From the NCBI GenBank assembly GCA_964387645.1, contig CAYLYM010000002.1, positions 642 to 64,641 on the forward strand: a stretch of DNA of 64,000 nt, given 5' to 3'. Source of the DNA: an uncultured Calditrichaceae bacterium. GTDB lineage: Bacteria > Calditrichota > Calditrichia > RBG-13-44-9. Positions 19,214 through 61,939 of this stretch are shown one piece after another (position 1 is the first letter of the stretch; each line of letters opens with the position of its first letter). The translations under genes and the position numbers were made by a program. Below the pieces are notes generated by a model, which saw nothing but the letters and a program-made list of their open reading frames with translations, was not told where the DNA came from and did not search any database.

Positions 19214-19215
19214 TC

Positions 19216-35358: not shown

Positions 35359-35393
35359 CTAGTTAAAAATAAAAAAGAGACAGGAAGGGCTAA

Positions 35394-37704: not shown

Positions 37705-37837
37705 ATTTTATATTTTGTTTTTTTAGTGTATATTATTAAATAGTTAAAGAATCTGGAGTTTTGTGAGCCCTATGAATATATTTTTGATATACTAAATCAA
37801 TCTTTATTTTGTCAAAACAAGATAGGGAGAACATGTA

Positions 37838-39163: not shown

Positions 39164-39249
39164 TACAAATTATCTTCTATTTAAAAGTATCTTCTATTTT
39201 AAATAAAGATGGTACTTAAAAAAAAAATTAATTAATGAGAGGGTTTAAG

Positions 39250-40641: not shown

Positions 40642-40662
40642 AAGTATTTTTTTCGTAGAGTT

Positions 40663-40693
40663 GAGGGTGGATATTAAAGGTATATCCACCCTC
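40663..40693 (+). terminator. Stem-loop between 39250..40641 and 40735
   Basis: Perfect 12 bp GAGGGTGGATAT / ATATCCACCCTC with a 7 nt loop. Confidence 0.6.
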
Positions 40694-40734
40694 TTGCTAA
40701 TTTTCCTGTCAGATTTTTTACAGGTTGGATTGGT

Positions 40735-41808: not shown

Positions 41809-41861
41809 CATCCTGTTCTAATGATTTATTTTCTTTCGGATAAACCAGATATGGAGGTATT

Positions 41862-43088: not shown

Positions 43089-43146
43089 AAATTTTATTTG
43101 TTTTTTTAATATTAAAGGATTCATAAGAAGTTAATTTTCCAGAGCT

Positions 43147-44418
43147 ATGTCAAAAAAAACAACCTTAAATCGACGTCAATTTCTGAAAAATACTTTTATT
43201 GGAATTGGATTATTTTCAATTGTTCCACGCCATGTACTGGGAGGACCGGGTTATACACCTCCCAGCGAAATGTTGACCAAAGCCGTCATTGGTGTTGGCT
43301 CCATGGGGCGTTGGCATCTGGGAGAAACCGGCGCCAAATTGTTGGCTGTTTGCGATGTGGATGATAAACACCTGCAACGAGCTTTAGAAATAGCTGGACC
43401 GGGAGTAAAGGGATATCATGATTTTCGGGAAGTTCTGGCACGACCGGATATCGATATTGTCCACATTGCCACACCGCCACACTGGCATGCTTTGATTGCC
43501 ATCGCCGCTGCCGAAGCTGGAAAAGACATTTGGTGTGAAAAACCTATGACCCGCACCATTGGTGAAGGAATTAAAGTAGTGGAAGCTGTACAGCGATATG
43601 GCCGTATATTCCGCATAAATACCTGGTTCCGGTTCCGATCCCGGTTTTATGGTTTTGGTACGCCAGTTCGCCCCATAAAAAAGTTGGTTGACAGCGGTTT
43701 GTTGGGTTGGCCATTAAAGGTAAATATTTGCGCGGCTACGGGTTTTAATTGGAAATTCCAGTGGAGTGGGAAAAAAGACCTCAAACCACAATGGATACCG
43801 CCACATCTGGATTATGATTTCTGGCTGGGACCAGCACCTTATAAACCTTACCATCCGCATAGAGTTCATGTCACTTTTCGTGGTTATTGGGATTATGATG
43901 GTGGTGGTCTGGGAGATATGGGACAACATTACATGGATCCGGTTCAATACCTCCTGAATAAAGATGATACCAGTCCGATAGAAATAGAGGTCGATGCACC
44001 GCAGCAACATCCCGATGCGGTGGGAAGCTGGCGAAAGATTAGATTGCGTTATAGCGACGGCTGCGAAATAATTCTTGATGGTGAAAATAAAGAGAAAGAT
44101 GTGCCATTCATAGAAGGTCCACATGGGAAGTTATTTCGCGGTTTTAAGTCGAATATTCCCAATTTGGAAGAAAAGCTCCGAGAGTTTCCCGATCCTGAAC
44201 CGCAGGTAACCGATTTCATCGAAGCAGTAAAAACGCGCCAAAAATTTGCCCTCAATGAAGCCAATGGACATCGTTCGGCTACCCTGGTAAATTTAGCAAA
44301 AATAGCTGTGCGTTTGGGCAGAAATCTCAAGTTCGATCCAGTGAAGCAACGCTTCATTGGGGATGAAACGGCCAATCGGCTTATTTTTCAACCCATGAGA
44401 GCACCATGGCATCTTTAA
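43147..44418 (+). CDS. Tat-exported Gfo/Idh/MocA oxidoreductase
   Basis: NRRQFLK; VIGVGSMG, ATPPHWH, EKPM, DMGQHYMD. Confidence 0.9.
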   Translation: MSKKTTLNRRQFLKNTFIGIGLFSIVPRHVLGGPGYTPPSEMLTKAVIGVGSMGRWHLGETGAKLLAVCDVDDKHLQRALEIAGPGVKGYHDFREVLARPDIDIVHIATPPHWHALIAIAAAEAGKDIWCEKPMTRTIGEGIKVVEAVQRYGRIFRINTWFRFRSRFYGFGTPVRPIKKLVDSGLLGWPLKVNICAATGFNWKFQWSGKKDLKPQWIPPHLDYDFWLGPAPYKPYHPHRVHVTFRGYWDYDGGGLGDMGQHYMDPVQYLLNKDDTSPIEIEVDAPQQHPDAVGSWRKIRLRYSDGCEIILDGENKEKDVPFIEGPHGKLFRGFKSNIPNLEEKLREFPDPEPQVTDFIEAVKTRQKFALNEANGHRSATLVNLAKIAVRLGRNLKFDPVKQRFIGDETANRLIFQPMRAPWHL

Positions 44419-44459
44419 TTCTGGAATTGTTTAATGGTAAAAAAGGATACTTTATCCAG

Positions 44460-47400
44460 ATGAAACAACATGTCAAAAATCTCTTGTTTTTTTTAGTTCT
44501 TTTACTTATAGGCTGTTCTGCAGGCTTAAAAACAGGTCTGTCTGTGAAACCAGAGTATTCCTTAGAGGATATTCTTGTTCAATATCCTGCAGAGAATGAA
44601 GTCCAATGGCAATTGTTGAATGAGGCATTGCTGAAATGGGGAGAACAGGGCATACTCCAAATATGCGATAATTTGGTTCCGACAAAGGTAGGGGGCGATA
44701 GTTTATCAAGGTATGCCATAAGCGGATTAACTAAATATCTATCCAGAGCAGGACTGGAAAAGCAAAGAAAAATGTATGTTCGCACTATTCTTCGAGCGCT
44801 GGAAAAAGAAGATGAAACCGAAGTTCAACATTTTCTAATTGAGCAATTACAATGGATTGGAGGAGATGAATCAGTCAAGCATTTGGCCAGATTTTTAAAT
44901 GATGATAAATTGTGTGATCCCGCAGTCAGAGCCCTGAAAGCCATAGGCAGCTCCAGCGCAAAAGAAGTTTTGTTGAAGGGACTGAAAAATTGCCATAATA
45001 AAAAATGTTGTCTATCACTTATTTTAACCCTTGGTGAACTTGAGTATGAAAAAGCGTTCGATCAAATAAAAGATTTTGTTGACAGCAAGGATAAAGAGAT
45101 TCGAGATGCAGCCTTCTTTGCTCTGGCCAGCCTGGGTCAAACCAGAGCTATTTCAATTTTTCAAACGACGCTGACAACAAGTGAAAATTCCAAAAAAAAT
45201 ACTTTATTTACAAATTTTCTACTTTTAGCTAGAAGATTGAAAGAAAAAGGAAATATAAAGCAGTGTGAAGTGATCTGTCGAGATCTACTAAATTCTGATC
45301 AGTATCAAGCGGATGGGACTGTAAAGGCTGCGGCGTTGAGGCTATTAGTGGAAGCTGTGGGAGAATCTGCAATAGATGAACTCGTTTCAGCGATAACAAG
45401 TGAGGATAAAGCTTATCGATCAGTTGCTCTGGAGTTAGCAGTGAATGTTGGAGGCCCGGAGGCCACCAACATCTGGATTGAGAAATTGAAACAGGTCTCT
45501 CCAGAAAAACAGGCCGAAATCGTCACGATGTTAGGTGACAGAGGCGATACCCTGGCTTTCCCGATTGTGCAGGAGATGTTGTCCAGCGAAAACAAAAATG
45601 TGCGGTTAGCGGCAATTGTGGCTATGAGTAAGTGTGGAAGAGAAAGTGCCATTCCTCATCTGATGGAATTGTTGAGAAAAACGAATGACCGGGAAGAGAT
45701 CAGGCTTATCCTTCAAAACTTAGAGAAATTGATAGAAAGCCGTCAATTAATGTCGAAGCTGGTAAACTCACTGGACAATTTTACTACACCTGCCATTGAA
45801 GAAATTATTCATCTATTGGTAGAGCGAAATGCTCGAGATCATATAAACAAAATCGCCAAATTAATGGATCACTCAGAGAAAAGAATTCGTCTAGCTGCCA
45901 TTCGAGCTGTAGGAGAATTGGGCGATGGTTCATATTTGGATAATTTGACAGAAATTTATCTAACCTCGGATAAGGGCGGGGAAGAATCGGCTACTTTGAA
46001 TGCACTGGTCTCGTTGGCCCGCCGCACCAATCGCCTGGTTGAAGTCAGTCAAAAGTTGGTTGATTTATTTCCCAGAGTGAACCGGGAAAAACAAAGAAGA
46101 ATATTAAGGGCACTTCCAAGGATTGGTAGTGATGAAGGACTGAAATGTGTCAGAGAAGCTGTTCTGAATTTTAAAGGTGAAAAGCGTACCGAAGCCATTC
46201 GTTCCTTATCAAATTGGAGGAAATTAGAAGCAATAGACCCGTTATTTGAGATTCTCGAAAAAGATACTGCTTTGGTTCATAAGATTCTCGCATTACGTGG
46301 ATTGCTGCAAATTTTAAAAGCTGATACAGTACTTGGTCCTGTCGAGAAATTGAATTTTTATCAAAAAGTTATGCACCTGTCACCGCGTTATTCAGAGAAA
46401 AAGATGATACTGGCCGCAGTAAGCGGTTTAGAGCATGTGCAGAGCCTTAAATATATTTTGAAATATTTACAGGATGATTCGTTAAAAACGGAAGCTGCGA
46501 TGGCGGCATATCAAATGGCTGTTTCCATGTTGGACGCCAATCGCGAATCCATGGCCAGCGAAATCATTCAGACACTTATTACATCTCAACTTGATTCCAA
46601 TACTGTTTATACTATTAAAGAAAAATTTATTGAACTGGAGCGATTGAATGAGCCACCGCCTGGATTTCGTGCACTTTTCAATGGGAAAAATCTGGCTGGC
46701 TGGAAAGGACTGGTCGGCAATCCGGTTACGCGAGCCAAAATGACACCTGAGGAATTAGCTAAAGCTCAGGCTAAAGCAGATTCTTCGATGCGTGAACACT
46801 GGAGAGTTGAAAACGGTATTCTGATTTTTGATGGCAAGGGTAAGAATATTTGTACGGTAGAAGAGTTTGGTGACTTTGAATTGTTAGTGGATTGGAAAAT
46901 TGAAAAGGGCGGTGATAGTGGTATCTATTTAAGAGGTTCTCCACAGGTGCAAATCTGGGACATTACTGAAAGGCCTGAAGGTTCTGGAGGGCTTTACAAT
47001 AATAAGTTACATCCCAGTAAGCCACTGGTGCCTGCAGATTTGCCTCCCGGAAAATGGAACCGTTTTAGAATAATTATGATTGGCGATCGTGTTACCGTTT
47101 ATTTAAATGGTGTTAAAGTGGTGGATAATGTGGTGATGGAAAATTACTGGGAGCGGGATAAACCTATTTATTCTCGTGGTCCAATTGAATTGCAAGCCCA
47201 TAACACATCTTTGTATTTCAGGAATATTTTCATCAGGGAAATTCCCAGAGAAGAAAAATCTTTTAAGGGTCCACTTTTTAATGGAAAAGATTTAACGGGT
47301 TGGGAATTGGTGGGAGCACAATCCGGGACATGGCGGGTCGAGAATGGCGTACTTATCACCGAAGGCCGTGGGGGAGGATGGTTGTCCACCACACGGGAAT

Positions 47401-47852
47401 TCGATAATTTTAAATTAGAATTGGATTTCCGCGTTTCTCAAGGTGGAAACAGTGGCGTTTTCATCCGGGCACCACATGAGGGAGATCCGGCTTATACTGG
47501 AATGGAAATTCAAATTCTGGACGATTACGCCCCAAAATATGCCAATTTGAAGCCCTGGCAATATACCGGAAGCATTTATGGTGTGCAGGCACCGGCCCAG
47601 CGGAAGAGTAAACCAGCCGGCACCTGGCAACATTTTGTGATTACCTGTGATGGCCCTAACATTACAGTTGAATTAAATGGAGACATTATTATTCAAACAA
47701 ATTTGATTGATCACATGGACAAAGAAAAAGAACATCCAGGATTGAAGCGTAGGAGGGGTTTCATTGGGTTACAAAACCATGGAAGCCGAGTAGAATTCAG
47801 GAATATTTATATCACAGAATTGGGAGTAAATACAAAAATGGTAGACAAATGA
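44460..47852 (+). CDS. Lipoprotein: HEAT-repeat solenoid plus two DUF1080 domains
   Basis: Lipobox LIGC (true start 44460; the ORF-track start overlaps the upstream gene); HEAT repeats; GDSGIYLRG...GPIELQAH and GNSGVFIR...GFIGLQNHG. Confidence 0.87.
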   Translation: MKQHVKNLLFFLVLLLIGCSAGLKTGLSVKPEYSLEDILVQYPAENEVQWQLLNEALLKWGEQGILQICDNLVPTKVGGDSLSRYAISGLTKYLSRAGLEKQRKMYVRTILRALEKEDETEVQHFLIEQLQWIGGDESVKHLARFLNDDKLCDPAVRALKAIGSSSAKEVLLKGLKNCHNKKCCLSLILTLGELEYEKAFDQIKDFVDSKDKEIRDAAFFALASLGQTRAISIFQTTLTTSENSKKNTLFTNFLLLARRLKEKGNIKQCEVICRDLLNSDQYQADGTVKAAALRLLVEAVGESAIDELVSAITSEDKAYRSVALELAVNVGGPEATNIWIEKLKQVSPEKQAEIVTMLGDRGDTLAFPIVQEMLSSENKNVRLAAIVAMSKCGRESAIPHLMELLRKTNDREEIRLILQNLEKLIESRQLMSKLVNSLDNFTTPAIEEIIHLLVERNARDHINKIAKLMDHSEKRIRLAAIRAVGELGDGSYLDNLTEIYLTSDKGGEESATLNALVSLARRTNRLVEVSQKLVDLFPRVNREKQRRILRALPRIGSDEGLKCVREAVLNFKGEKRTEAIRSLSNWRKLEAIDPLFEILEKDTALVHKILALRGLLQILKADTVLGPVEKLNFYQKVMHLSPRYSEKKMILAAVSGLEHVQSLKYILKYLQDDSLKTEAAMAAYQMAVSMLDANRESMASEIIQTLITSQLDSNTVYTIKEKFIELERLNEPPPGFRALFNGKNLAGWKGLVGNPVTRAKMTPEELAKAQAKADSSMREHWRVENGILIFDGKGKNICTVEEFGDFELLVDWKIEKGGDSGIYLRGSPQVQIWDITERPEGSGGLYNNKLHPSKPLVPADLPPGKWNRFRIIMIGDRVTVYLNGVKVVDNVVMENYWERDKPIYSRGPIELQAHNTSLYFRNIFIREIPREEKSFKGPLFNGKDLTGWELVGAQSGTWRVENGVLITEGRGGGWLSTTREFDNFKLELDFRVSQGGNSGVFIRAPHEGDPAYTGMEIQILDDYAPKYANLKPWQYTGSIYGVQAPAQRKSKPAGTWQHFVITCDGPNITVELNGDIIIQTNLIDHMDKEKEHPGLKRRRGFIGLQNHGSRVEFRNIYITELGVNTKMVDK

Positions 47853-48095: not shown

Positions 48096-49574
48096 ATGGT
48101 TAAGAAGATCGCTTTTACCACATTGATTGTTGTGTTATCGTTTGCGGTAATAAATTGCGGAAAATCGCAGCAAACATCGGTTCAAAAAACTTCAGCCGAG
48201 GAAACTGAATTACCAACAACCTATCATCCTGCCATTGATTTTTATGATGGTTGGCATTTGGCTGTTCAAGCCTGGTCATTTAATCGTTTTACTTTCTTTG
48301 AAGCCATTGATAAAGTGGCTTCTCTGGGTTTAAGTTGGATTGAGGCTTATCCAGGTCAAAAGTTAAGTTCGGAATATCCTGATGCCAAATTTGATCCAAC
48401 CTTACCGGCAGAATTGAGAGCTCTGGTGAAACGTAAATTAAAAGAAACAGGTATTCGATTGATTAATTACGGAGTGACAAAATTGCCCAATGATGAAGCG
48501 GAGTGTCGGAAAGTTTTTGAATTTGCGAAGGAATTTGGTATAAAAACCATAATGGCAGAGCCGCGCGAAGATGCTTTGGATTTAATTGAAAAACTCTGTC
48601 AGGAGTATCAGATTCAGGTGGCTATTCACAATCATCCCAAGCCATCTTATTATTGGAATCCGGATAAAGTGTTGGAAGTTTTAAAAGGACGAAGCAAGTG
48701 GCTTGGAGCTTGTGGCGATATTGGGCATTGGATGCGTTCTGGGATAGATCCATTGGAAGCGTTGAAAAAATTAGAAGGTCGATTACTTAGTTTGCATTTT
48801 AAAGATTTAAATGAATTTGGTGTGCGAGAGGCTCACGATGTTCCCTGGGGTACCGGAAAGGCAAATGTTCCAGCTCTTTTAGCTGAACTTCATCGTCAGG
48901 GCTATAGGGGTGTATTTTCCATAGAGTATGAGTACAACTGGCTAAATTCACTTCCCGAAATACGTCAATGTGTAGAATATTTTAATCAAGAGGCGGCAAA
49001 ACTCAATCCCTCTGGTTGGAAATATTTATTCGCTAAAGATTTATCCAACGCGATTTTCAAGGAAGGCAGTTGGACAATGGAAGATGGTGTTTTAACATGG
49101 CATGGTGGCAGCTATATCTGGACTAAAGAAAAATATGGTGATTTTATTTTAGATTTAGAATTTAAACTGGCTCCCCAAACCAACAGTGGCGTTTTCCTAA
49201 GAGCTGGATCACTGAAAAATTATGTTCAAACTTCCATTGAAGTGCAAATTCATGAAACCACTGATGGTACCAAACATGGCCAGTGTGGAGCTATTTATGA
49301 TTGTTTATCTCCCAGGGTTAATGCAGTCAAAAAGCCTGGCGAATGGAATCGGTACACCATTACATGCAAAGACAATAAAATTTATGTTGTACTAAATGGT
49401 GAACCTATAATAGATATGGATCTCGATTTGTGGACGGAACCTCACAAAAATCCCGATGGGACCAAAAACAAATTCCGTACGCCTTTAAAAGATTTCCCAA
49501 GAGAAGGGTATATTGGATTGCAAGACCATGGAAAACCTATCTGGTTTAGAAATTTAATGATTAAAGAATTGTAA
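48096..49574 (+). CDS. Lipoprotein fusion: AP-endonuclease-2 TIM barrel (BT2156-like) plus DUF1080
   Basis: Lipobox VINC; GWHLAVQAWSF, IEAYPGQ, AIHNH, GDIGHW, LHFKD, SIEYE; then TNSGVFLR...GYIGLQDHGKPIWFRNL. Confidence 0.87.
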   Translation: MVKKIAFTTLIVVLSFAVINCGKSQQTSVQKTSAEETELPTTYHPAIDFYDGWHLAVQAWSFNRFTFFEAIDKVASLGLSWIEAYPGQKLSSEYPDAKFDPTLPAELRALVKRKLKETGIRLINYGVTKLPNDEAECRKVFEFAKEFGIKTIMAEPREDALDLIEKLCQEYQIQVAIHNHPKPSYYWNPDKVLEVLKGRSKWLGACGDIGHWMRSGIDPLEALKKLEGRLLSLHFKDLNEFGVREAHDVPWGTGKANVPALLAELHRQGYRGVFSIEYEYNWLNSLPEIRQCVEYFNQEAAKLNPSGWKYLFAKDLSNAIFKEGSWTMEDGVLTWHGGSYIWTKEKYGDFILDLEFKLAPQTNSGVFLRAGSLKNYVQTSIEVQIHETTDGTKHGQCGAIYDCLSPRVNAVKKPGEWNRYTITCKDNKIYVVLNGEPIIDMDLDLWTEPHKNPDGTKNKFRTPLKDFPREGYIGLQDHGKPIWFRNLMIKEL

Positions 49575-49735: not shown

Positions 49736-49764
49736 TTGACCCAAAGAATGCTATTTATTATTAT
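49736..49764 (+). promoter_or_regulatory. Putative sigma70 promoter for the oxidoreductase-multiheme-cytochrome b unit
   Basis: TTGACC-17 nt-TATTAT in the 49575-49923 spacer. Confidence 0.55.
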
Positions 49765-49923
49765 AGGACACTATTGAAGGTAAATTTGAGTGATTAATAC
49801 AATTAAAAATGAAAAACATTTAATTTAAACTTCTTTTTATTTAGTTATCTGGTTAATTTTTAAGTGATTGTATTTTCAAAATATTTTAAAAAAAGGAAGG
49901 GAAAGTATTATTATAGGTGTCTT

Positions 49924-51288
49924 ATGAGCAGTGACAAAAAACAAAACGCTATGGACAGAAGAAGTTTTTTGCGGTATACAGCTGTAGCTGGGGCCGGGCT
50001 TATGGTTACTTCTTTAGCTAGGCCTGCAAGAGTAACTTCTTCTTCAGACGATTTAAACATTGCCTTATTAGGGGCAGGAGCACAGGGACAAGTTTTAATG
50101 AATGCTATTCTAAAATTGAACGCCAAACCCAATATGCCGCAGGTGAGGTTTAGGGCCGTTTGCGATATTTGGAAAGATTACAACCAGAAACGGGCAGCTC
50201 GATTGTTACAGAAATATGGACATAATGTAAACCGTTATGAAGATTATCGGGAAATGCTGGCCAAAGAAAGGGATCTGGATGCGGTAATTATTGCTACGCC
50301 AGACTTTTGGCATGCTCGGCATACAATTGCCTGCTTGGAAGCCGGTTTAAATGTCTATTGTGAAAAAGAAATGTCTAATAAACTTGAAGATGCCAAAAAG
50401 ATGGTGCTGGCGGCTCGTCGAACTGGAAAGTTATTACAAATAGGGCATCAACGAAGGAGTAATCCACGTTATATACATTGCTATAACAAATTAATTAAAG
50501 ATGCCCAGATTCTGGGACGAATCACTACAACTCGCGGACAATGGAATCGATCGGTTCAGCCAGATTTAGGATGGCCCAAAAAGTATGCCATTGAACCAAG
50601 CGTCCTGAGAAAATATGGTTTTGAGAATATGCGGCAATTTAGAAATTGGCGTTGGTACAAACGACTAGGTGGCGGTCCAATTGTAGATTTAGGGTCCCAT
50701 CAAATTGATATCTTTAGTTGGTTTCTTGAAGCCAATCCTTCTTCAGTAATTGCCAGTGGTGGTACTGACTATTACGATAAAAGCACTCATGAATGGTATG
50801 ATACTGTAATGGTTATTTACGAATATGATACGAAATATGGAAAAGTGAGGGCATATTACCAGACCCTGACAACCAACAGTAGCGAAGGTTATTTCGAAAG
50901 CTTTCTTGGTGACCAGGGAACTTTACAAATTTCTGAATCTGGTAATCGTGGTGGTGTATGGCGAGAACCATCGGCTCCTATCTGGGATAAATGGGTGCAA
51001 ATGGGATATATTTTGGAACCTGAGGAGGAAAAAAAGAAACAGGATGTTACAGCGGTATTGGATGTGCGAGAAACTATTGCTCCACCCAAACACAATTTGC
51101 CAGTTGTATTAAAAGATCCGTATCATTTACCTCATTTACAGAATTTCTTTGATGCTGTTCGCGGAAAAACTAAGTTGAATTGTCCTGCTGAAATAGGTTA
51201 TGAAACAGCCGTGGCTGTTCTGAAGGTGAACCAGGCGGTTGAAGCTGGCCGAAAGCTCACCTTTAGGCCCGAAGAGTTTCATGTTTAA
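49924..51288 (+). CDS. Tat-exported Gfo/Idh/MocA oxidoreductase (EKE variant)
   Basis: DRRSFLR; ALLGAGAQG, ATPDFWH, CEKEM in place of EKP, DLGSHQID. Start moved to 49924. Confidence 0.88.
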   Translation: MSSDKKQNAMDRRSFLRYTAVAGAGLMVTSLARPARVTSSSDDLNIALLGAGAQGQVLMNAILKLNAKPNMPQVRFRAVCDIWKDYNQKRAARLLQKYGHNVNRYEDYREMLAKERDLDAVIIATPDFWHARHTIACLEAGLNVYCEKEMSNKLEDAKKMVLAARRTGKLLQIGHQRRSNPRYIHCYNKLIKDAQILGRITTTRGQWNRSVQPDLGWPKKYAIEPSVLRKYGFENMRQFRNWRWYKRLGGGPIVDLGSHQIDIFSWFLEANPSSVIASGGTDYYDKSTHEWYDTVMVIYEYDTKYGKVRAYYQTLTTNSSEGYFESFLGDQGTLQISESGNRGGVWREPSAPIWDKWVQMGYILEPEEEKKKQDVTAVLDVRETIAPPKHNLPVVLKDPYHLPHLQNFFDAVRGKTKLNCPAEIGYETAVAVLKVNQAVEAGRKLTFRPEEFHV

Positions 51289-51318
51289 ATGATGTATATT
51301 GGTTGTAAGGGGAGAATT

Positions 51319-53289
51319 ATGGCAAAAGTAGGAATAATATTCTGCCTGATAGGTGTGGTGCATTTCCTTTTTGCACAAGCAGATACCTCGCAATCGGGTA
51401 TCGACACTCAGAAAGTAGCTTCGGATTCTATAATTAGTGAGCAACCAAAAAAGCTGGAATTAAAGCTAGGCGACAAAAATGACGGAAATCGTTCGATACC
51501 GATTCACCTTATCGATATATTCGATGAAGAGGGCATGAAAATATTTCCTGAGGATCGCCCGCAGTTACCATTTTCTACCAAACAAACCTGTTTACCTTGT
51601 CACAATTATGAAATTATCCGTAGAGGATGGCATTTTAATGCTTTGGATCAAGATGTTCCCCCAGGGAGACGTGGTGAACCATGGATTTTGTATGATCCTT
51701 TAACCGCTACACAATTACCATTGTCGTATCGTTCCTGGCCGGGGAGCTATCGACCCGAAGATTTAGGTATAAATTATTTCACTTTCACTCGAAAGTTTGG
51801 TCGGCATTTTCCGGGTGGTGGTCCTGGAGAGAAAGCCGAAGAAGACGATCCAGATGCCTATGTTCGCTGGATGGTTTCTGGCCAATTGGAGATTAATTGT
51901 TTGAGCTGTCATAATGCCCATCCTGAACATGATCAAGCCGAATTTGCTGCTCATGTGACTCGAGAAAATTATCGGTGGGCAGCGGCAGCATCAAGTGGAC
52001 TGGCCATAGGTAAAGGTTCCGCCAAAGACATGCCTAATAATTTTGATATTTATTTTGGTATCGATCCGGATAATCCCAGAGCCATACCCCCTAGCATAAC
52101 TTACAAACCTAATATTTTTGACGAAAGAGCTCGGGTTTTTTTCAATCTTGTCAGGAAAGTTCCTGCAGAAAGGTGTTATTTTTGTCACTCTACTGTTTAT
52201 TTAGAGGAAAATTTGGTGGAAATGTGGGAAATGGATGAGGATGTTCATCTCAAGGCGGGAATGACTTGTGTAGATTGCCATCGTAACGGATTAGATCACA
52301 TGATTGTGAGAGGTTATGAAGGAGAATCGGAGGTGAGAGAAAATCCTGTTATTGCTTCATTTACTTGTAAAGGTTGTCATCTGGGTACTGAAGATGGAGA
52401 AATTCCCCTTACCGGTCGATTAGGTGCCCCAAGGCCTGAGCACAAAGGTATTCCAACCGTCCATTTTGAAAGACTTTCCTGTACAGCTTGTCATTCTGGC
52501 CCCTGGCCAACTGACCATGCTTATCGCATTAAAACTTCTAGAGCAAATGCACTGGGCACTCATACCGTCAATCGAAATGAAGAAATTATTCCCAAGCTTC
52601 AAGCAACCGTTTTTGTAAAAGATGAATCCGGGAAAATTGAACCACATAAGTTGCTTTGGCCTTCTTTTTGGGCTGAAATCAAAGGTGACAGTGTGACTCC
52701 ATTGCTTCCGGAAAAAGTACAACCGGCTATTCTCAAAGCCTTAGCTGCGGATACTTTAACGGATAGTATGAATTATGAAAAAATACTTTCTGGCGATTGG
52801 CCAGAATTAAGCAGAGATCAGATTATCCTGATTTTGAAAGAATTATCATCTGATAGTACTCATCCTATGCATGCAGCTTATATTGGTGGAGGAAAATTAT
52901 ATAAACTTTCTAAATCAGGAGATCTGGTAAAAGAAAATCATCCTGCTGCTCAACCCTATACCTGGGCATTCGCTCATGATGTTCGACCAGCATCCCAATC
53001 ACTGGGCATTCATGGTTGCAATGATTGTCATAATAATAGCGCCCCCTTTTATTTTAGCAAGGTAGCTGTTCTATCACCTTTGAAATTCCAGAATGAGAAA
53101 TTTCGTAGAATGACTTCTTTTGAAAAAACAGGTGTTTTATTTCCAAGACTCTTCGCCATGACATTTATTTTCCGACCCTGGTTAAAGTTAATAATTTTCA
53201 TTTGTAGTATTATTATCGCTTCAGTATTAATTCTTTATGCCTTCAAAGGCCTGGACAAGATTATAAAAGTTTTAGCGGATCAACAATAA
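51319..53289 (+). CDS. Periplasmic multiheme (7x CxxCH) cytochrome c with C-terminal membrane anchor
   Basis: Sec signal; CLPCH, CLSCH, CYFCH, CVDCH, CKGCH, CTACH, CNDCH; C-terminal hydrophobic helix. ATG 51319 follows an AGGGGAG SD. Confidence 0.88.
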   Translation: MAKVGIIFCLIGVVHFLFAQADTSQSGIDTQKVASDSIISEQPKKLELKLGDKNDGNRSIPIHLIDIFDEEGMKIFPEDRPQLPFSTKQTCLPCHNYEIIRRGWHFNALDQDVPPGRRGEPWILYDPLTATQLPLSYRSWPGSYRPEDLGINYFTFTRKFGRHFPGGGPGEKAEEDDPDAYVRWMVSGQLEINCLSCHNAHPEHDQAEFAAHVTRENYRWAAAASSGLAIGKGSAKDMPNNFDIYFGIDPDNPRAIPPSITYKPNIFDERARVFFNLVRKVPAERCYFCHSTVYLEENLVEMWEMDEDVHLKAGMTCVDCHRNGLDHMIVRGYEGESEVRENPVIASFTCKGCHLGTEDGEIPLTGRLGAPRPEHKGIPTVHFERLSCTACHSGPWPTDHAYRIKTSRANALGTHTVNRNEEIIPKLQATVFVKDESGKIEPHKLLWPSFWAEIKGDSVTPLLPEKVQPAILKALAADTLTDSMNYEKILSGDWPELSRDQIILILKELSSDSTHPMHAAYIGGGKLYKLSKSGDLVKENHPAAQPYTWAFAHDVRPASQSLGIHGCNDCHNNSAPFYFSKVAVLSPLKFQNEKFRRMTSFEKTGVLFPRLFAMTFIFRPWLKLIIFICSIIIASVLILYAFKGLDKIIKVLADQQ

Positions 53290-53308
53290 ATAGAGGTAGT
53301 CAAGGCTT

Positions 53309-53968
53309 ATGTTTTTCCGAATATTATCATTTATTGGATTGATAGCTGTTATTATATGGATTTATTCTGCTTTAAAATCCAATCAAGAAATAAAGAAAAG
53401 TATAGGAGTATGGATAAAAGGGCAAATTCAAGAAATTTTTATTGCTTTTAAAAATATTAAAAAAACGCCTCCATCTGATTATTTTGTAATTTTCAGGAAA
53501 ACTATTTATTTTTTAACAATTTTATGTGTGCTAATTTTAGCATTTACTGGATTTTTACCAGTACTTTTTGGTAGTCACCTTTCTGGTTATTTGCTTTTGA
53601 TTCATGTGAGTGTGGCGCCTATTTTTGCTATTTGTATGGCTCTTATTAGCCTTATTTGGGCTAGTCAAAAACGTTTTGACCGTCTCAATTGGGAATGGTT
53701 TAGAAAATTATTTAAAAAAAATCGAAATCAAAGTAATAGTGTTCAATTTTATAATTGTACAGAAAAAGTATTCTTCTGGTTTTTGTTAATTTTAGCTTTG
53801 ATAATAATTCTATCCATATTGTTAAGCATGCTTAAATATTTTGGAACTGGAGCGCAGGAGTTTTTGATACAATTGCATAGGTTTAGTGCCTTGTTTTTTG
53901 TGATAGCTTCGTGTTACCATACGTATTTAATAATATTTCAATGTATTAAAGAAAAATCTATAAAGTGA
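53309..53968 (+). CDS. Cytochrome b-like membrane protein (FdnI/formate dehydrogenase gamma-like)
   Basis: 4-5 TM helices; LLIHVSV, FYNCTEKVFFW, and QLH...CYH with His residues 14 apart; the helix-I His position appears to be Tyr (RKTIYF). Confidence 0.7.
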   Translation: MFFRILSFIGLIAVIIWIYSALKSNQEIKKSIGVWIKGQIQEIFIAFKNIKKTPPSDYFVIFRKTIYFLTILCVLILAFTGFLPVLFGSHLSGYLLLIHVSVAPIFAICMALISLIWASQKRFDRLNWEWFRKLFKKNRNQSNSVQFYNCTEKVFFWFLLILALIIILSILLSMLKYFGTGAQEFLIQLHRFSALFFVIASCYHTYLIIFQCIKEKSIK

Positions 53969-54138: not shown

Positions 54139-55287
54139 ATGGAAAAAATTGTATGTTTATTAGCGCTTTATGGTTTGGGAATGTGTTTTGCATTATTGGG
54201 ATCAATTAGTGTTAAGCTAATGCCGCGATTGGAAATTGATGAAGGAAAATTTGGATCCTTAATCTCGGTTTTTATGTTTTCTGCAGTGATTGCCTCGCTT
54301 ATTATTGGAGTGGTAATTGATTCGATTGGTTATAAACCTGTTGCAATTATTGGTTTTCTTTTTACTGGATTAGTTATTTTGCTCATGGCTCGTGGTAAAA
54401 CTTATGGTCTGGTGTTGATATCGTGTATATTATTGGGATTTGGAGCTATGGCATTAAATACTGCTGGAAATACTTTAGCACCAGTTGTATTATTTGGAGG
54501 AAAGAATCCAGCGGCTGCTAGTAATCTTGGTAATGTATTCTTTGGATTAGGCCTATTTCTTACTCCATTAATTGTTAGTTACTTATTTAAAAAGATTTCC
54601 TATGAAAATGCTGTTTCTGTTCTTGGTATAATTGCTTTTGTTCCCCTTATTTTTGCTATTCCTGCAACCTACCCAGCAAGTCAAGCCGGATTTAAACTTT
54701 CGACTGCATTTGGATTACTTGGTGAGCCCGCTGTCTTACTCGGAGCTATAACACTCTTTTTCTACATAAGCTTAGAATCTTCACTTACTAACTGGTTGCC
54801 TTCATTTGGTAAAGAAATTATTAAAAAAGCACAGAGTGATATTGATGAAAATGTCGTGGATGCCTCAGCAGCACAGTTACTTTCATTTTTTGCTATTGCT
54901 ATGATGATTGGTCGATTAATTGCAAGTCAGATTCCCGCCATTACTACTTATGGAGCCTGGTTTATTATTGGTGCTGCATTGCTTTCTTTAATAATAATAT
55001 TTTTAATGACTATTACCAAAAGTGTAATGTTTTCCAGAGTTTGTGCTTTTCTTGCTGGTTTATTTTTTGCTCCTATATTTCCAACAACAGTGGGAGTTAC
55101 ATTTGCTAAATTCAATCCCGAAATTTATGGAAGTATCTTTGGTATTATCTTTGCTGTAGGTTTGCTTGGTGCTGTAACTATACCTAAAGCAATAGGTAAT
55201 TTGGCTCGTGGAACGAGTGTTCAAAAAGGTATGAGACTTCTTATACCTGCATGTATAATTCTAATAGTTTTAGGCTTTTTCTTATAA
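54139..55287 (+). CDS. MFS sugar transporter
   Basis: About 12 TM helices; GVVIDSIGYK loop, NLGNVFFGLG, AMMIGRL, APIFPT. Confidence 0.85.
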   Translation: MEKIVCLLALYGLGMCFALLGSISVKLMPRLEIDEGKFGSLISVFMFSAVIASLIIGVVIDSIGYKPVAIIGFLFTGLVILLMARGKTYGLVLISCILLGFGAMALNTAGNTLAPVVLFGGKNPAAASNLGNVFFGLGLFLTPLIVSYLFKKISYENAVSVLGIIAFVPLIFAIPATYPASQAGFKLSTAFGLLGEPAVLLGAITLFFYISLESSLTNWLPSFGKEIIKKAQSDIDENVVDASAAQLLSFFAIAMMIGRLIASQIPAITTYGAWFIIGAALLSLIIIFLMTITKSVMFSRVCAFLAGLFFAPIFPTTVGVTFAKFNPEIYGSIFGIIFAVGLLGAVTIPKAIGNLARGTSVQKGMRLLIPACIILIVLGFFL

Positions 55288-55302
55288 CTTCTATTTAAGT
55301 AG

Positions 55303-55335
55303 ATTCAGGGGCCTAAAATTCCTTGGCCCCTGAAT
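55303..55335 (+). terminator. Rho-independent terminator after the MFS gene
   Basis: Perfect 11 bp ATTCAGGGGCC / GGCCCCTGAAT followed by ACTTT. Confidence 0.75.
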
Positions 55336-55676
55336 ACTTTCATTTAAAATTGAAATTTTTTTATTGTTTATTAATCGCACAAGTTGCCACAAATTTAATC
55401 CACAAGTTAGTCCACTAATTTTGCTATTTATTGAAGTATTCTAAGTTATTGAACAGTGTTAATTTCTCTAAAGAATTTTAATTTTCTCTTTGACAGTGAA
55501 TTTGTATTGTGATTTTTTTACCTGCCTAACCTATTTTTTCTCATATTTGAGATTAAACCTGATTTAATTTTTGGAAGGGAAACTACCAAATTACTGATCT
55601 ATTTTTTAAAAATATTCACATTTTCTTTAAACTATCACAATATTTAAGTTAAGATAAATAAAAGGATAGGTGAGCA

Positions 55677-56951
55677 ATGGAAAAAGAAAAAATTATTTCA
55701 TTTCTAAACGAATCAAAACATCATTTAGAAAATGAATTACTGCCTTTTTGGCTAACTCGCTGTAAAGACGAAAAATATGGTGGATTTATTACTCATTTCG
55801 ATAAAGATGGGAATGATACTGGTGAGGATGAGAAATCCCTGATTGCTCAAACACGAACAATTTACACCATGGCTTCAGCTCACCGGGCCGGATATGGCGA
55901 TGGTCAGTGTCTGGAATTTGCTAAACATGGCGTGGATTTTTTACTGAATAAAATGTGGGATAAAGAAAAGGGTGGTTTCTATTGGATGCTGGATCGCAAA
56001 GGAAATATAAAGATAGATCAGAAAATTCTTTATGGTCATAATTTTGCCATTTATTCGTTAAGTGAGTACACCCTTGCTTCGGGTGATCCGATAGGGCTGG
56101 AATATGCGGAAAAAACTTTTGATCTTATTCAAAAATATTGTACAGATACCATGTATGGCGGATATTTTGAGATGTTTGATAGAAATTGGAATTTATGCGG
56201 TCCGGGAAGTCAAGGGGGAGATCGGAAGACCCTGGATGTTCATATGCATTTAATGGAAGCGTTCACCACCTTGTTCGAAGCCAGTCAGAAGGAAATTCAT
56301 AAAAGAAAATTACAAGAAGACATCGAGATATTGCTACAACGCATGTTGCATCCTGAGTACGGTACGGGTATTCCACAATTTTGGCGAGATTGGCGTGTAG
56401 CCCCGCAAATAAAATTTGATATTGTTTGGGGTTGGGATCGATTTGCTAATGGACAAAAAAAGGCCCATGCAGAAGATAATACTTCCTATGGTCATAATGT
56501 AGAATTGGCCTGGCTCTTTATTCATGCTTTGAATGTCATGGGAATTCCAGTTTCAGATTATGAGGATGTACTTAAAAAATTGTTCGATCATGCGGTGAAT
56601 TATGGTATCGATCACGAGTATGGTGGCGTTTACGTCGAAGGCTCTCATGCTGGGGAAGTTTATGATCGTGAAAAAGAATTCTGGCAACAAGCAGAACTAC
56701 TTATAGGGATGTTGGATGCCTGCATTTATTTCAAAGATGAAAAATACTGGCAAGCTTATGAAAAAGTCCATCGTTTTGTTTTCGATAAGATGATCAATCA
56801 TCAAGTAGGTGAATGGTGGCCTTTGTTAACCCGTGAAGGTCAGCCCATCTGGACCCATATGAGCCATTCATGGAAAGTAAACTATCACACCGTACGAGCA
56901 ATGGTGCAGAGTATTAAACGGTTAGAAAAATTATTGGAGATGACATTGTAA
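55677..56951 (+). CDS. AGE-family epimerase/isomerase (cellobiose 2-epimerase-like)
   Basis: LLPFWL, AQTRTIY, YGHNFAIY, KTLDVHMHLMEA, SYGHNVELAWL, WQQAE, WKVNYHTVRA. Confidence 0.88.
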   Translation: MEKEKIISFLNESKHHLENELLPFWLTRCKDEKYGGFITHFDKDGNDTGEDEKSLIAQTRTIYTMASAHRAGYGDGQCLEFAKHGVDFLLNKMWDKEKGGFYWMLDRKGNIKIDQKILYGHNFAIYSLSEYTLASGDPIGLEYAEKTFDLIQKYCTDTMYGGYFEMFDRNWNLCGPGSQGGDRKTLDVHMHLMEAFTTLFEASQKEIHKRKLQEDIEILLQRMLHPEYGTGIPQFWRDWRVAPQIKFDIVWGWDRFANGQKKAHAEDNTSYGHNVELAWLFIHALNVMGIPVSDYEDVLKKLFDHAVNYGIDHEYGGVYVEGSHAGEVYDREKEFWQQAELLIGMLDACIYFKDEKYWQAYEKVHRFVFDKMINHQVGEWWPLLTREGQPIWTHMSHSWKVNYHTVRAMVQSIKRLEKLLEMTL

Positions 56952-57029
56952 TTTTTCAGGAAGTTGGGAAAGTTCTCTATTAAAATTATTCTTTATTACT
57001 CATCTGATTTTTTATTTCGAAAATGAATA

Positions 57030-58964
57030 ATGTTGGATAAAAATTGGCATGGGATGTCTATGAAGGAAAGTCGAGTTAGAGAGATATTGGAAAAAATAAA
57101 AAATGTCCGTATAGCAGTTTATGGTGATTTTTGTCTTGATGCTTACTGGATTTTAGATCCGCATGGTTCAGAAGTTTCTGTGGAAACAGGACTTTTAGCA
57201 GAGGCTGTTCGTGAGCAACGATATTCTCCTGGTGGAGCTTCAAACGTTGTAGCTAATGTTGCGGCATTGGAACCGGCTTCTGTTTTGGCTATCGGTGTCA
57301 TCGGTAATGATATTTTTGGAAGAGAATTGCTTCGTCAACTGAGGAAGCTGAAGATTGATACCAGTGGTCTGATTATCCAAAAAGAAAATTTCGATACGGT
57401 GACTTTCGCCAAAAGATATCTTAACGATCAGGAACAACCTCGCATCGATTTTGGCTTTTTTAACCGTCGCTCTCGAAAGACGGATCGGGCCATTTTAGAC
57501 AACCTTCGGAAAGCTTTAAATGAATACGATGTGGTGATATTTAATCAACAAGTACCGGGAAGCCTGACCAATGAAGAGTTTATCGATGAGTGCAACAGGT
57601 TATTCCTGGAATTTAACGATAAAATCATCCTGTTTGATTCACGGCATTACGGACACCGTTTCAAACATGTTTATAGAAAGACCAACGATATCGAAGTAGC
57701 CCGATTGAATGGAGTCGATGTATCATCTGGTGATATTATTCCTCTCTGTGATATTAAAAAATTTGCGCAAAAACTTTTTAATGAATCTCATAAACCGGTT
57801 TTTGTAACACGGGGTGCACGCGGGATAATTACTGTTGATGATGATGGGATTCATGAAATTCCAGGAATTCAACTTTTAGGTAAAATTGATCCGGTTGGTG
57901 CAGGTGACACGACTATTAGTGCTTTGGGACTTTGTCTGGGCGCAGGGTATTCTCCATCTGAAGCGGCCGAATTTGCTAATTTTGCGGCAGCAGTCACTGT
58001 TCAAAAACTTTTTACTACCGGTACGGCCTCTGCCCCTGAAATTATTGAAATGTGCCGAAATGCCGATTATATTTATCAGCCTGAGTTGGCTGAGGACATT
58101 CGCCAGGCAAGGTATATCGAAGGTACCGAAATCGAAGTATGTGGTGACATGAATATAATCACTTCGGGCAAAATAAAACATGCTGTTTTTGACCATGATG
58201 GAACAATTAGTACATTACGGCAGGGATGGGAAGCAATCATGGAGCCGGTTATGATCCGTGCTATCTTAGGGGATCAATATGAAACGGCTGATGAAACACT
58301 TTATCATAAAGTACGCAATCGGGTTTTGGAGTTTATTGAGGCAACTACAGGAATGCAGACTATTGTTCAAATGGAAGGTCTGGTGGCGCTGGTTAAGGAA
58401 TTTGGCATTGTGCCGGAAAGTCAAATCCTGGACAAGTTTGGTTATAAAGAGATATACAATAACGCATTGATGGAAATGGTGAATAAAAGAATGGCTAAAT
58501 TGAAGAGAGGGGAGTTGGATGCTACCGATTTCACGGTAAAAGGAGCAGTGGATTTTTTAAAGGCGCTCCGAGACCATGGTGTAACGCTTTATTTGGCGAG
58601 TGGAACTGATCGTGAAGACGTTGAACGCGAAGCAAAATCTCTCGGGTATGCCGATTTATTTAATGGAGGTATTTATGGTGCAGTTGGAGATATCAAGAAA
58701 TATTCTAAAAAAATAGTGATCGAAAAGATAATGAACGAAAACCAATTAAGTGGTGTAGAATTACTGGTGGTCGGCGATGGACCGGTGGAGATTCGGGAAT
58801 GTCGTAAACGAGACGGTATTGCAATAGGGGTTGCAAGTGATGAAATTCGTCGACATGGTTTAAACACCCGTAAACGAACGCGACTCATAAAAGCAGGAGC
58901 GCAACTTGTTATCCCTGATTATTCTCAAAAACATCATTTGCTTACTATTCTGTTTCCTGGATAG
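57030..58964 (+). CDS. Bifunctional PfkB (RfaE/HldE-kinase-like) carbohydrate kinase plus HAD phosphatase
   Basis: IAVYGDFCLDAYW, PGGASNV, DPVGAGDT (PfkB); FDHDGT, LASGT, VVGDGPVE (HAD). Start could be 57054 or 57060. Confidence 0.82.
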   Translation: MLDKNWHGMSMKESRVREILEKIKNVRIAVYGDFCLDAYWILDPHGSEVSVETGLLAEAVREQRYSPGGASNVVANVAALEPASVLAIGVIGNDIFGRELLRQLRKLKIDTSGLIIQKENFDTVTFAKRYLNDQEQPRIDFGFFNRRSRKTDRAILDNLRKALNEYDVVIFNQQVPGSLTNEEFIDECNRLFLEFNDKIILFDSRHYGHRFKHVYRKTNDIEVARLNGVDVSSGDIIPLCDIKKFAQKLFNESHKPVFVTRGARGIITVDDDGIHEIPGIQLLGKIDPVGAGDTTISALGLCLGAGYSPSEAAEFANFAAAVTVQKLFTTGTASAPEIIEMCRNADYIYQPELAEDIRQARYIEGTEIEVCGDMNIITSGKIKHAVFDHDGTISTLRQGWEAIMEPVMIRAILGDQYETADETLYHKVRNRVLEFIEATTGMQTIVQMEGLVALVKEFGIVPESQILDKFGYKEIYNNALMEMVNKRMAKLKRGELDATDFTVKGAVDFLKALRDHGVTLYLASGTDREDVEREAKSLGYADLFNGGIYGAVGDIKKYSKKIVIEKIMNENQLSGVELLVVGDGPVEIRECRKRDGIAIGVASDEIRRHGLNTRKRTRLIKAGAQLVIPDYSQKHHLLTILFPG

Positions 58965-59164: not shown

Positions 59165-60082
59165 ATGTCTCTAAATAAGAAAGACTTATCTCGCCGGGAA
59201 TTTATTCAACAGGGTTCAAAAGCAGCAGCAGGATTGGTGGCCGCTAGTGCACTGGCTGCTTATAATGTAAAAGCCGGACAAAAGCGTGGTTCAAAAATGC
59301 GTTTTGGTTTGGTAACATACCTTTGGGGTAAAGATTGGGATTTGCCAACACTGATCCGTAATTGTGAACGAACCAATGTTCTGGGTGTTGAGTTAAGAAC
59401 ACAACATGCTCATGGTGTTGAATCTAACCTGAATGCGCGTCAACGATACGAAGTGAAAATACGTTTTCAGAACAGCCCGGTTACGCTGGTTGGACTGGGA
59501 ACTAATTTTGCTTTCCATTATGTCGATCAGGATCGCCTGAAAAAAGAAATTCAGGGAGCTAAAGATTATATCAAATTATCTTATGACGTTGGTGGAAGCG
59601 GTATTAAAGTAAAACCTAATGCTTTACCTAAAGAAGTTCCTCCGGAAAAAACTTTTGAACAGATCGGACGCTGTTTAAATGAGCTTGGTAAATATGCGGC
59701 AGATTATGGGCAAAAAATTAGAGTAGAAGTTCATGGTAAAGATACTCAAAAGCTTCCTAACATGAAAAAGATTTTTGACCATGTGACTGAACCAAATGTA
59801 GGCGTGTGTTGGAATTGTAACCAACAGGATCTGGAGGGAAAAGGGTTAGAATATAATTTTAATTTAGTAAAAGATCGTTTTGGAGATACGGTTCATGTAC
59901 GAGAGCTGAATAATCCTGATTATCCTTACCAGAAATTAATTAATCTCTTTGTTCAAATGGATTATGCCGGGTGGATCTTATTAGAAGCGCGGGGAAATCC
60001 TCCTGACCGTATCAAGGCCTTGGCTGAACAATATGCTCTTTTTAAAGAAATGTTAGCAAAAGCTCAGGATCAATTTGGTTGA
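59165..60082 (+). CDS. Tat-exported AP-endonuclease-2-family TIM barrel, divergent metal site
   Basis: SRREFIQ; GVELRT, RVEVH, CWNCN, VHVREL, LLEAR. Confidence 0.78.
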   Translation: MSLNKKDLSRREFIQQGSKAAAGLVAASALAAYNVKAGQKRGSKMRFGLVTYLWGKDWDLPTLIRNCERTNVLGVELRTQHAHGVESNLNARQRYEVKIRFQNSPVTLVGLGTNFAFHYVDQDRLKKEIQGAKDYIKLSYDVGGSGIKVKPNALPKEVPPEKTFEQIGRCLNELGKYAADYGQKIRVEVHGKDTQKLPNMKKIFDHVTEPNVGVCWNCNQQDLEGKGLEYNFNLVKDRFGDTVHVRELNNPDYPYQKLINLFVQMDYAGWILLEARGNPPDRIKALAEQYALFKEMLAKAQDQFG

Positions 60083-60149
60083 TAGAAAGTTTTAAATTTT
60101 GTTAATGTTTAAAGATTAACTTTTCACTTAAATAAAAGGAGGTAATCGT

Positions 60150-61616: not shown

Positions 61617-61647
61617 TTGAAACCTGAAATTTTATTTTATGTTTATG

Positions 61648-61677
61648 ACCCCCGGGGGTTTTTTAAACCCCGGGGGT
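61648..61677 (+). terminator. GC-rich stem-loop, probable terminator
   Basis: ACCCCCGGGGGTTT-TTT-AAACCCCGGGGGT, 31 nt after the stop at 61616. Confidence 0.65.
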
Positions 61678-61939
61678 GTTTATAATTTTAAAATCCGATT
61701 TTTAAACCCACCCAACACAAAAACTATAATTGTAAAAAAATGTAACAATATTGCTGTTTTTCATACCTTTTTTTAATTTATTTTCTAAATATACTTAATT
61801 ATAAAATATTGAAGATAGTTAGTAAAAAACTGACTGAGAATTATCTATTCAAATCTGGAACATAATTTATTGGGGAAAATTTTAAAAATAGAGACTAAAA
61901 TGTACGAGGGAAATTTTGGAAAGAAGACATCAAAACTCT

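Follow-up and report, generated by a model that had tools for sequence, protein, structure and literature searches.

A conserved cassette of an exported Gfo/Idh/MocA dehydrogenase, a heptaheme cytochrome c and an FdnI-like cytochrome b: a candidate periplasmic sugar:quinone oxidoreductase

How the bound nicotinamide cofactor of an exported sugar dehydrogenase is re-oxidised is a question on which a 64,000-nucleotide stretch of DNA (hereafter the window) from an uncultured Calditrichaceae bacterium (contig CAYLYM010000002.1, positions 642 to 64,641) bears. Periplasmic Gfo/Idh/MocA (GFO) enzymes initiate a glycan breakdown pathway of broad specificity that was recognised only recently, and they are greatly expanded in Planctomycetota, KSB1, Bacteroidota and their relatives. 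NAD(P) is not exchangeable in the periplasm, and a cassette of three forward-strand genes in the window is a testable candidate for the recycling of the bound cofactor. Gene A (49924–51288, 454 amino acids (aa) from the ATG at 49924) encodes an NAD(P)-type GFO dehydrogenase with a twin-arginine translocation (Tat) signal, gene B (51319–53289, 656 aa) encodes a Sec-exported heptaheme cytochrome c with a membrane helix at its C-terminus, and gene C (53309–53968, 219 aa) encodes an FdnI-like cytochrome b with an extra N-terminal helix and four core helices. On balance we lean toward the reading that the three proteins would assemble into a membrane-bound periplasmic dehydrogenase of sugars or glycosides that feeds the quinone pool, with a three-part design like that of formate dehydrogenase-N (Fdn-N).

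Genes and proteins of the cassette

The listing of open reading frames (ORFs) contained all three genes where the initial annotation had placed them, and the gaps of 30 nt between A and B and 19 nt between B and C were confirmed. The maximal ORF of A covered 49864–51288 and reached back to a GTG codon at 49864. The ATG at 49924 was taken as the likely start because AGGTG was located 6 nt upstream and the length of the resulting N-terminus matched the consensus of the orthologs; the ATG at 49951 was a possible alternative. The N-terminus from ATG 49924 is MSSDKKQNAMDRRSFLRY, in which MDRRSFLRY is followed by a hydrophobic stretch. This signal scored 17.0 bits with TIGR01409 (cut-off 16.7) and 19.3 with the Pfam model TAT_signal, which was under the cut-off of 22.7. 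The R-R-x-F residues were invariant among the A orthologs. Two Pfam domains were clearly matched, namely GFO_IDH_MocA (PF01408, 5.8e-19, 69.4 bits, cut-off 24) and GFO_IDH_MocA_C (PF02894, 3.6e-13, 50.3 bits, cut-off 22.9), and PF22725 was also matched. The description of A as a Tat-exported GFO protein was thus borne out by domains above their cut-offs and by the RRSFL twin-arginine motif.

The residues expected of a functional enzyme were evaluated in 72 orthologs of A. The GxGxxG motif (G41/G43/G46) was kept in 68 of the 68 orthologs covering these columns, and the other four were gapped there. Asp72, at the end of strand 2, was conserved; an Asp at this position is typical of a preference for NAD over NADP. 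E138-K139-E140 corresponded to an EKP-type motif in which Pro was replaced by Glu, and its Lys was conserved. D246 and H250 of the D-x-x-x-H catalytic motif (DLGSH) were conserved as well. Because the glycine motif, Asp72, the Glu-Lys pair and the Asp and His of DLGSH were conserved, A looks like a working nicotinamide-dependent enzyme. It is probably a competent NAD(P) dehydrogenase with a tightly bound cofactor, which would be exported by Tat in the folded state.

The closest solved relatives of A were the C-glycoside 3-dehydrogenase DgpA, glucose-fructose oxidoreductase, 1,5-anhydrofructose reductase and glucuronide 3-dehydrogenase. The best NCBIfam model was that of the BT_2158 glycoside 3-dehydrogenase (NF058561), with 86.5 bits against an equivalog cut-off of 750, and the match was limited to the N-terminal 275 residues. 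Judged by these scores, A is a relative of the BT_2158 family and not a member of it, and it represents a separate subfamily. Database copies of A carried generic names only. The predicted structure was of low confidence, with a predicted local distance difference test score (pLDDT) of 50.

The start of B at 51319 is preceded by AAGGGGAG, and an alternative ATG at 51289 abuts the stop codon of A. The N-terminus was Sec-like, with MAKVGIIFCLIGVVHFLFAQA before the predicted cleavage site and D after it. Exactly seven CxxCH motifs were present, starting at residues 101, 204, 296, 327, 360, 398 and 577 (numbered from ATG 51289), and a long C-terminal helix was modelled at 598–655. The motif count, the signal and the modelled helix agreed with the earlier description of B as a Sec-exported protein with seven CxxCH motifs and a C-terminal transmembrane helix. 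In an alignment of 30 B homologs all seven CxxCH motifs were invariant, together with exactly seven further His residues. Hence, enough candidate distal ligands were available for bis-His ligation of all seven hemes. Seven CxxCH motifs were also found in 130 of 150 representatives of the B family.

Pfam matches in B were limited to residues 289–404, with an NrfB/NapC/c7-like packing that covers hemes 3–6. The conserved remainder accounts for three hemes, two of them in an N-terminal part of about 250 residues and the third in a C-terminal part of about 200. B is large for its heme number, with about 94 residues for each of the seven. A sequence profile of B searched against the PDB gave only chance-level matches, to nitrite reductases. 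In a Foldseek search with the B model, which was of mediocre quality (pLDDT 62, heme core below 50), no PDB structure matched with an E value below 0.06. At E ≤ 1e-30, out of 1.84 billion representatives searched, the family comprised 494 clusters (50% identity), all of them unnamed. The heptaheme B family is a new element.

C matched PF01292 with 1.2e-11 and 45.1 bits (cut-off 30.1) and stayed below the equivalog cut-offs of the Fdn gamma subunit (35.9 against 115.85). The only PDB match of a profile of 26 orthologs was FdnI (1kqf_C, E 6e-6). Both results were in line with the cytochrome-b-like protein of the initial annotation. In the alignment with FdnI, Tyr67, His99, His190 and His204 of C were placed opposite His18, His57, His155 and His169, respectively. 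The helix II His and both helix IV His noticed earlier were therefore found at the aligned positions, as was the Tyr in place of the helix I His. C has three of the four His ligands of the FdnI/HydC type. In the Fdn-N structure of Jormakka et al. from 2002, His57 and His155 reportedly bind the periplasm-side heme, and His18 and His169 the cytoplasm-side heme. We take His99 and His190 of C to be the ligands of the periplasm-side heme, and Tyr67 and His204 to be the cytoplasm-side ligand positions.

The two pairs differed in retention. Among 77 orthologs His99 was kept in 76, His190 in 77, His204 in 56 and Tyr67 in 61. Tyr67 and His204 tended to be kept or lost jointly, and both were present in 53 of the 77. 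In 47 members in which B and C were fused (46 family representatives and the ORF of locus L020), the cytoplasm-side positions were Tyr/His in seven, His/His in five and neither in most. The FdnI-like picture of two hemes in the initial annotation consequently did not hold across the family, in which only the periplasm-side pair was universal. The predicted periplasm-side heme is a constant feature of the C family. The second heme b is doubtful because the cytoplasm-side pair varies; in the C protein of the window a second heme with an unusual Tyr/His ligation is possible, and it would not be required by the family.

Conservation, fusions and substitution

A search for the three-gene neighbourhood in other genomes had been proposed as a check on the initial annotation. 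Relatives of B were scanned for in one genome per species by using an alignment of B homologs; a single B sequence as query gave no matches. At least 567 stretches encoding such relatives were found, and the best 80 were analysed. These 80 loci spanned KSB1, Calditrichota, Planctomycetota (Pirellulales-labelled, Phycisphaerae and Sedimentisphaerales), Omnitrophota, Acidobacteriota and Bacteroidota. An A-type gene was located upstream of B on the same strand in all 77 loci with upstream sequence, almost always directly adjacent. The full-length A orthologs matched with E values of 1e-165 to 1e-234, whereas the paralogs gave 1e-15 to 1e-33. Downstream of B, in the 77 loci with room for a further gene, C was a separate next gene in 75, was fused to B in one (L020) and was missing in one (L016). 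When the search was seeded from A in metagenome contigs, B was the next gene in 53 of the 70 loci in which the contig continued for 500 nt or more behind A. The A–B–C string was confirmed by independent gene calls, with precomputed Pfam domains, for a 3.4 Mb assembly and a metagenome-assembled genome of Melioribacteraceae; these calls extended the cassette to Ignavibacteriota. The order A–B–C was thus kept in essentially every related locus, across at least six phyla. A cytochrome pair occurring mostly without the dehydrogenase had been named beforehand as a finding that would speak against a joint function; every one of the 77 B loci had A. These results support A–B–C as a conserved unit.

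Evidence for a unit of B and C was also provided by natural fusions. A C-terminal cytochrome b domain was carried by 46 of the 150 best B-family representatives (about 30%), among them P0122, P0124, P0125 and P0127, and likewise by the L020 ORF (L020:6938-9484). In the fusions the C-terminal helix of B runs into helix 1 of the C-type domain. Hence, the fusions support B and C as one unit, and the junction fixes the topology as that of FdnI, with a periplasmic B globule and with helix 1 directed from the inside to the outside. As a separate observation, the membrane helix of B takes the place of the extra N-terminal helix of C in these proteins. Fusions of A with B were not found among the B homologs, and the long B homologs merely carried insertions.

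In the A-seeded loci without the B–C pair, the gene directly behind A usually encoded a DoxX/DoxD membrane protein of 160–180 residues (about ten loci). The families concerned were PF07681 (3e-9) and PF04173, the latter being the small subunit of thiosulfate:quinone oxidoreductase. Examples were L099:1866-2351 and L136:3058-3603, and the same arrangement was present in L108, L112, L139, L140, L145, L146, L149 and L154. Replacement of the cytochrome pair by a membrane protein with a quinone-related family assignment fits a transfer of electrons from A to the quinone pool. Apparent fusions of A with DoxX were rejected as wrong-frame ORF artefacts in high-GC contigs.

Electron route and competing explanations

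The scheme to which this evidence was related is the following. A would be exported by Tat in its folded form with tightly bound NAD(P) and would oxidise a sugar hydroxyl. Considering the relatives of A and the neighbouring genes, the probable position is the C3-OH of a glycoside, which would give a 3-keto sugar. The reducing equivalents would pass from A into the seven c-hemes of B, whose C-terminal helix would anchor it beside C. From there they would go to the heme b on the periplasmic side of C (His99/His190) and finally to quinone. As the second heme b site lacks conservation, quinone may be reduced at either face of the membrane: at the cytoplasmic face, which would conserve energy in a proton-motive half-loop of the Fdn-N kind, or at the periplasmic one. 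The cofactor of A would thereby be kept oxidised without a second sugar, and the surrounding 3-keto-glycoside pathway would be linked to respiration. From sequence and gene context we infer the formation of the complex, its substrate, the direction of flow and the electron step from hydride to heme.

A gap in the published pathway corresponds to this scheme. The 3-keto-glycoside pathway consists of a GFO 3-dehydrogenase, a TIM-barrel lyase and a DUF1080 lyase/hydratase, and its periplasmic glycoside 3-dehydrogenase holds NAD tightly and needs re-oxidation in place (PMC8121099; bioRxiv 10.1101/2024.03.25.586180). An unknown second sugar was proposed as the re-oxidant in one of these two studies, and the route of re-oxidation of the bound NAD(H) was left open in the published work (PMC8121099; bioRxiv 10.1101/2024.03.25.586180). 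The GFO, TIM-barrel and DUF1080 families encoded around the cassette match the enzymes of this pathway.

The initial annotation had described the three proteins as a catalytic subunit, a multiheme wire and a quinone-reacting anchor. The conserved unit, the B–C fusions and the DoxX substitute fit that description; the step from NAD(P)H to heme was left unaddressed in it. This step is the first of several points that weigh against the proposed scheme. NAD(P)H is an obligate two-electron hydride donor, hemes accept single electrons, and enzymes normally bridge the two kinds of carrier with a flavin. To our knowledge, an electron step from bound NAD(P)H to hemes is without precedent. A, B and C had neither a recognisable flavin-binding domain nor a canonical flavinylation motif. 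The structure models of A and B were too poor to judge interfaces, and, with no A–B fusion, the contact of A with B is argued from gene adjacency alone. The identity of A across phyla was 57–74%, which suggests that the island moves horizontally, so that the conserved gene order is not fully independent evidence. The cassette has no cultured host. Many of the hosts belong to anaerobic lineages, where it is not obvious which terminal acceptor would take the electrons.

The candidates for the step from hydride to single electrons are a covalent flavin mononucleotide (FMN) installed by ApbE, a small-molecule mediator and a direct reaction. ApbE was brought into consideration by the related loci, in most of which C was followed on the same strand by a module of an F5/8-type-C lipoprotein, a PMT_2 (GT-C) membrane protein, an ApbE flavin transferase and often a GT2 glycosyltransferase (for example, L161:14013-18123, L164:13848-17694 and L022:9479-13508). 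ApbE was present in 36 of the 51 related loci with enough downstream sequence and was located directly after C in L018, L044 and L055. It stayed beside A where the B–C pair was absent (L113, L114, L116 and L120) or was replaced by DoxX (L099 and L108). Since these ApbE proteins had no signal peptide, their predicted site of action is the cytoplasm, the compartment in which A, as a Tat substrate, would fold. ApbE proteins of the cytosol are known, and the canonical target motif of flavinylation is D-x-x-[S/T]-G-A-[S/T] (PMC12052999). This motif was absent from every ORF of loci L001–L080, of L161 and of the window. An SGGT stretch in A was considered as a flavin target and was rejected, as its Thr position was not conserved (T/I/V). 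The window itself contained none of the four module genes, including ApbE, which also weighs against the scheme. A flavin role of ApbE with A is a lead and not a finding. The Alistipes fosmid in the study of the 3-keto-glycoside pathway also bears GT2 and GT39 genes (bioRxiv 10.1101/2024.03.25.586180).

The difficulty with the hydride step is not removed if electrons are taken to flow in the opposite direction, with B–C as a CbcL-like quinol oxidase and A as a reductase of a periplasmic keto-sugar or another carbonyl, in anaerobic respiration or redox balancing. The mismatch of hydride and single electrons would be equally present, the transfer from menaquinol to bound NAD(P)+ would be strongly uphill according to general knowledge of midpoint potentials, and the surrounding pathway needs an initial oxidation step. 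Reverse flow is thus considered unlikely, although many of the hosts (Sedimentisphaerales, Omnitrophota and KSB1) are from anoxic sediments, the class of CbcL, MtoC and MtrH, with a multiheme c and an FdnI-like b, is thought to be bidirectional (PMC6295460), and GFO enzymes of the pathway also reduce 3-keto sugars (bioRxiv 10.1101/2024.03.25.586180). Coupling might also be indirect. A and B–C would then be co-expressed, and B–C would oxidise a small diffusible reductant formed by A or by proteins encoded nearby, or would use such a shuttle to serve several Tat-exported GFO paralogs. The island contains nine such paralogs and one cytochrome pair, the size of B per heme and its conserved non-heme regions would allow a substrate site, and the related enzyme AL3 is re-oxidised in vitro by dehydroascorbate and erythrose (bioRxiv 10.1101/2024.03.25.586180). 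However, only the A orthogroup was locked beside B, as the E values of orthologs and paralogs demonstrated, and the availability of a candidate second His for all seven hemes argues against an open catalytic heme. Indirect coupling was accordingly given a low probability.

The gene order could in principle be retained without any shared function if the sugar island were transferred whole as a block. The very high identity of A across phyla agrees with such transfer, and long stretches of the neighbouring genes were syntenic too. Nevertheless, A–B–C stayed intact while its surroundings were reshuffled, with HEAT-DUF1080 or TIM-DUF1080 genes upstream and MFS, GFO, permease or ApbE-module genes downstream. 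Moreover, loci that had lost B–C contained a different membrane protein in its place, one whose family name is quinone-related. Mere block transfer is therefore regarded as highly improbable.

Going back to the favoured reading of a dehydrogenase that feeds the quinone pool, a more specific form of it is put forward tentatively. The cassette could quite possibly represent a widespread and undescribed respiratory enzyme class, whose periplasmic GFO enzyme would carry NAD(P) as a prosthetic group and have it re-oxidised by a dedicated heptaheme c and cytochrome b module, or by DoxX in a sister form. A non-canonically attached flavin, put on by the cytoplasmic ApbE before Tat export, may be involved. 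Such a class would be the missing electron-disposal route of periplasmic 3-keto-glycoside pathways. One GFO orthogroup is tied to its own cytochrome chain, and relatives of B occur in the species-level genome stretches counted above. If the cassette works as proposed, a new catalytic module joins the three-subunit design of periplasmic dehydrogenases, extracytoplasmic sugar oxidation is coupled to energy conservation in abundant uncultured sediment bacteria, and a real chemical question is posed as to how a hydride carrier feeds a heme wire.

Genomic setting and relation to known systems

The trio was scanned for transcription signals, and no convincing terminator was found inside A–B–C; from this and the layout, co-transcription of the three genes is likely. 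A promoter-like site, TTGACC-17 nt-TATTAT (49736–49764, forward strand), was present 160 nt upstream of the likely A start, with 10 of 12 consensus matches. The promoter-like element of the initial annotation was thus located; it was not clearly enriched over chance in this AT-rich stretch (25 such sites found against 17.3 ± 4.5 expected) and is weak evidence for a promoter upstream of A. An Rfam scan of the whole window gave no matches. An imperfect 25-nt direct repeat ending in TATTATTATAGG was observed 5' of A (49743–49767 and 49893–49917, with the copies 150 nt apart). The first of the two copies shares positions with the promoter-like -10 element, and the other lies immediately ahead of the A start codon. 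The repeats in this region were unremarkable in the repeat check.

From about 24 kb to 64 kb, the window is an island of periplasmic sugar-oxidation genes. The window contained nine GFO genes with a Tat signal (A included) and one without a signal, which apart from A lay within 24781–44418 and 59165–63208 (forward strand). Three further window proteins with a Tat signal were two xylose-isomerase-like TIM barrels and one protein without a Pfam match. For periplasmic sugar oxidoreductases such a density of genes is unusual. Several DUF1080 proteins, some of them fused to TIM barrels or HEAT repeats, and TIM-barrel lyase-like proteins were also encoded in the island. Shortly upstream of A, on the same strand, a lipoprotein-like fusion (48096–49574) combined a xylose-isomerase-like TIM barrel (PF01261, 4e-21) with DUF1080, the 3-keto-disaccharide hydrolase family (PF06439, 2e-43). 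Homologs of this fusion were present in 54 of the 80 loci and were directly upstream of A in many, in agreement with the independent gene calls. Two large exported proteins on the forward strand, one with ThuA (trehalose utilisation) and HEAT repeats (29072–31906) and one with HEAT repeats and two DUF1080 domains (44406–47852), had homologs upstream of A in many related loci.

Downstream of C (54139–58964, forward strand), the genes encode a major facilitator superfamily (MFS) transporter, an N-acylglucosamine/cellobiose 2-epimerase-like protein and a fusion of a pfkB-type sugar kinase with a HAD phosphatase-like domain. An MFS transporter was also located after C in six related loci. At 36181–37704 (forward strand), a membrane-anchored NapC/NirT-type tetraheme cytochrome c with four CxxCH motifs was fused to an FGE-sulfatase-like domain. 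The fusion recurred in related sugar islands (L164:1573-3111, with homologs in L006, L012 and L059) and is a second quinol-linked heme protein of the island, as yet unexplained. At 16607–21088 (forward strand), a glucuronate isomerase gene was followed by genes of a tripartite ATP-independent periplasmic (TRAP) transporter (DctP, a small ORF and DctM). This group represents ordinary uronate uptake and catabolism and had no counterpart in the related loci.

The cassette was compared with the systems to which it is most similar. FdnGHI of E. coli (1kqf) shares with it a Tat-exported catalytic subunit, a wire subunit anchored by one helix and a four-helix cytochrome b. The catalytic subunit of FdnGHI is a molybdoenzyme, whereas that of the cassette is an NAD(P)-type Rossmann enzyme, and the wire contains four iron-sulfur clusters in the former and seven c-hemes on a Sec-exported protein in the latter. 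FdnI and C differ in the helix I ligand (His and Tyr, respectively), in the cytoplasm-side heme site, which is not conserved in the C family, and in the extra N-terminal helix of C. CbcL, MtoC and MtrH of Geobacter and other bacteria also combine a periplasmic multiheme c with an FdnI/HydC-like b that reacts with quinone or quinol (PMC6295460); the likeness to B–C is one of domain architecture and not of sequence comparison. The combination that defines these bc-cytochromes, a multiheme c and an FdnI-like b in one unit, was found here as adjacent genes and elsewhere as the B–C fusions described above. In contrast to B–C, whose partner is a sugar dehydrogenase, CbcL, MtoC and MtrH are linked to extracellular electron transfer and are found beside other cytochromes or MtrAB.

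LacABC, composed of a flavin adenine dinucleotide (FAD) flavoprotein, a cytochrome c and a small Tat subunit, performs a membrane-associated periplasmic C3 oxidation of glycosides, passes electrons through cytochrome c and lies beside DUF1080 genes (PMC9007349; PMC8121099). It differs in that its FAD enzyme is able to give single electrons, and it has neither an FdnI-like cytochrome b nor a heptaheme protein. BT2158, AL3 and the glucose-fructose oxidoreductase of Zymomonas resemble A in being Tat-exported GFO enzymes with Rossmann and D-x-x-x-H motifs and the same pathway neighbours (PMC8121099; bioRxiv 10.1101/2024.03.25.586180). They hold a tightly bound nicotinamide cofactor; unlike the scheme proposed for A, this cofactor is recycled with a second sugar, and dedicated cytochromes are absent. 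A literature search found no description of the cassette, in keeping with the initial statement that no described complex of this architecture was known. The design of a periplasmic dehydrogenase with an electron wire and a quinone-reactive cytochrome b is already known, as is the b–c module. The prosthetic-nicotinamide catalytic partner, the heptaheme family and the variable second heme site are new.

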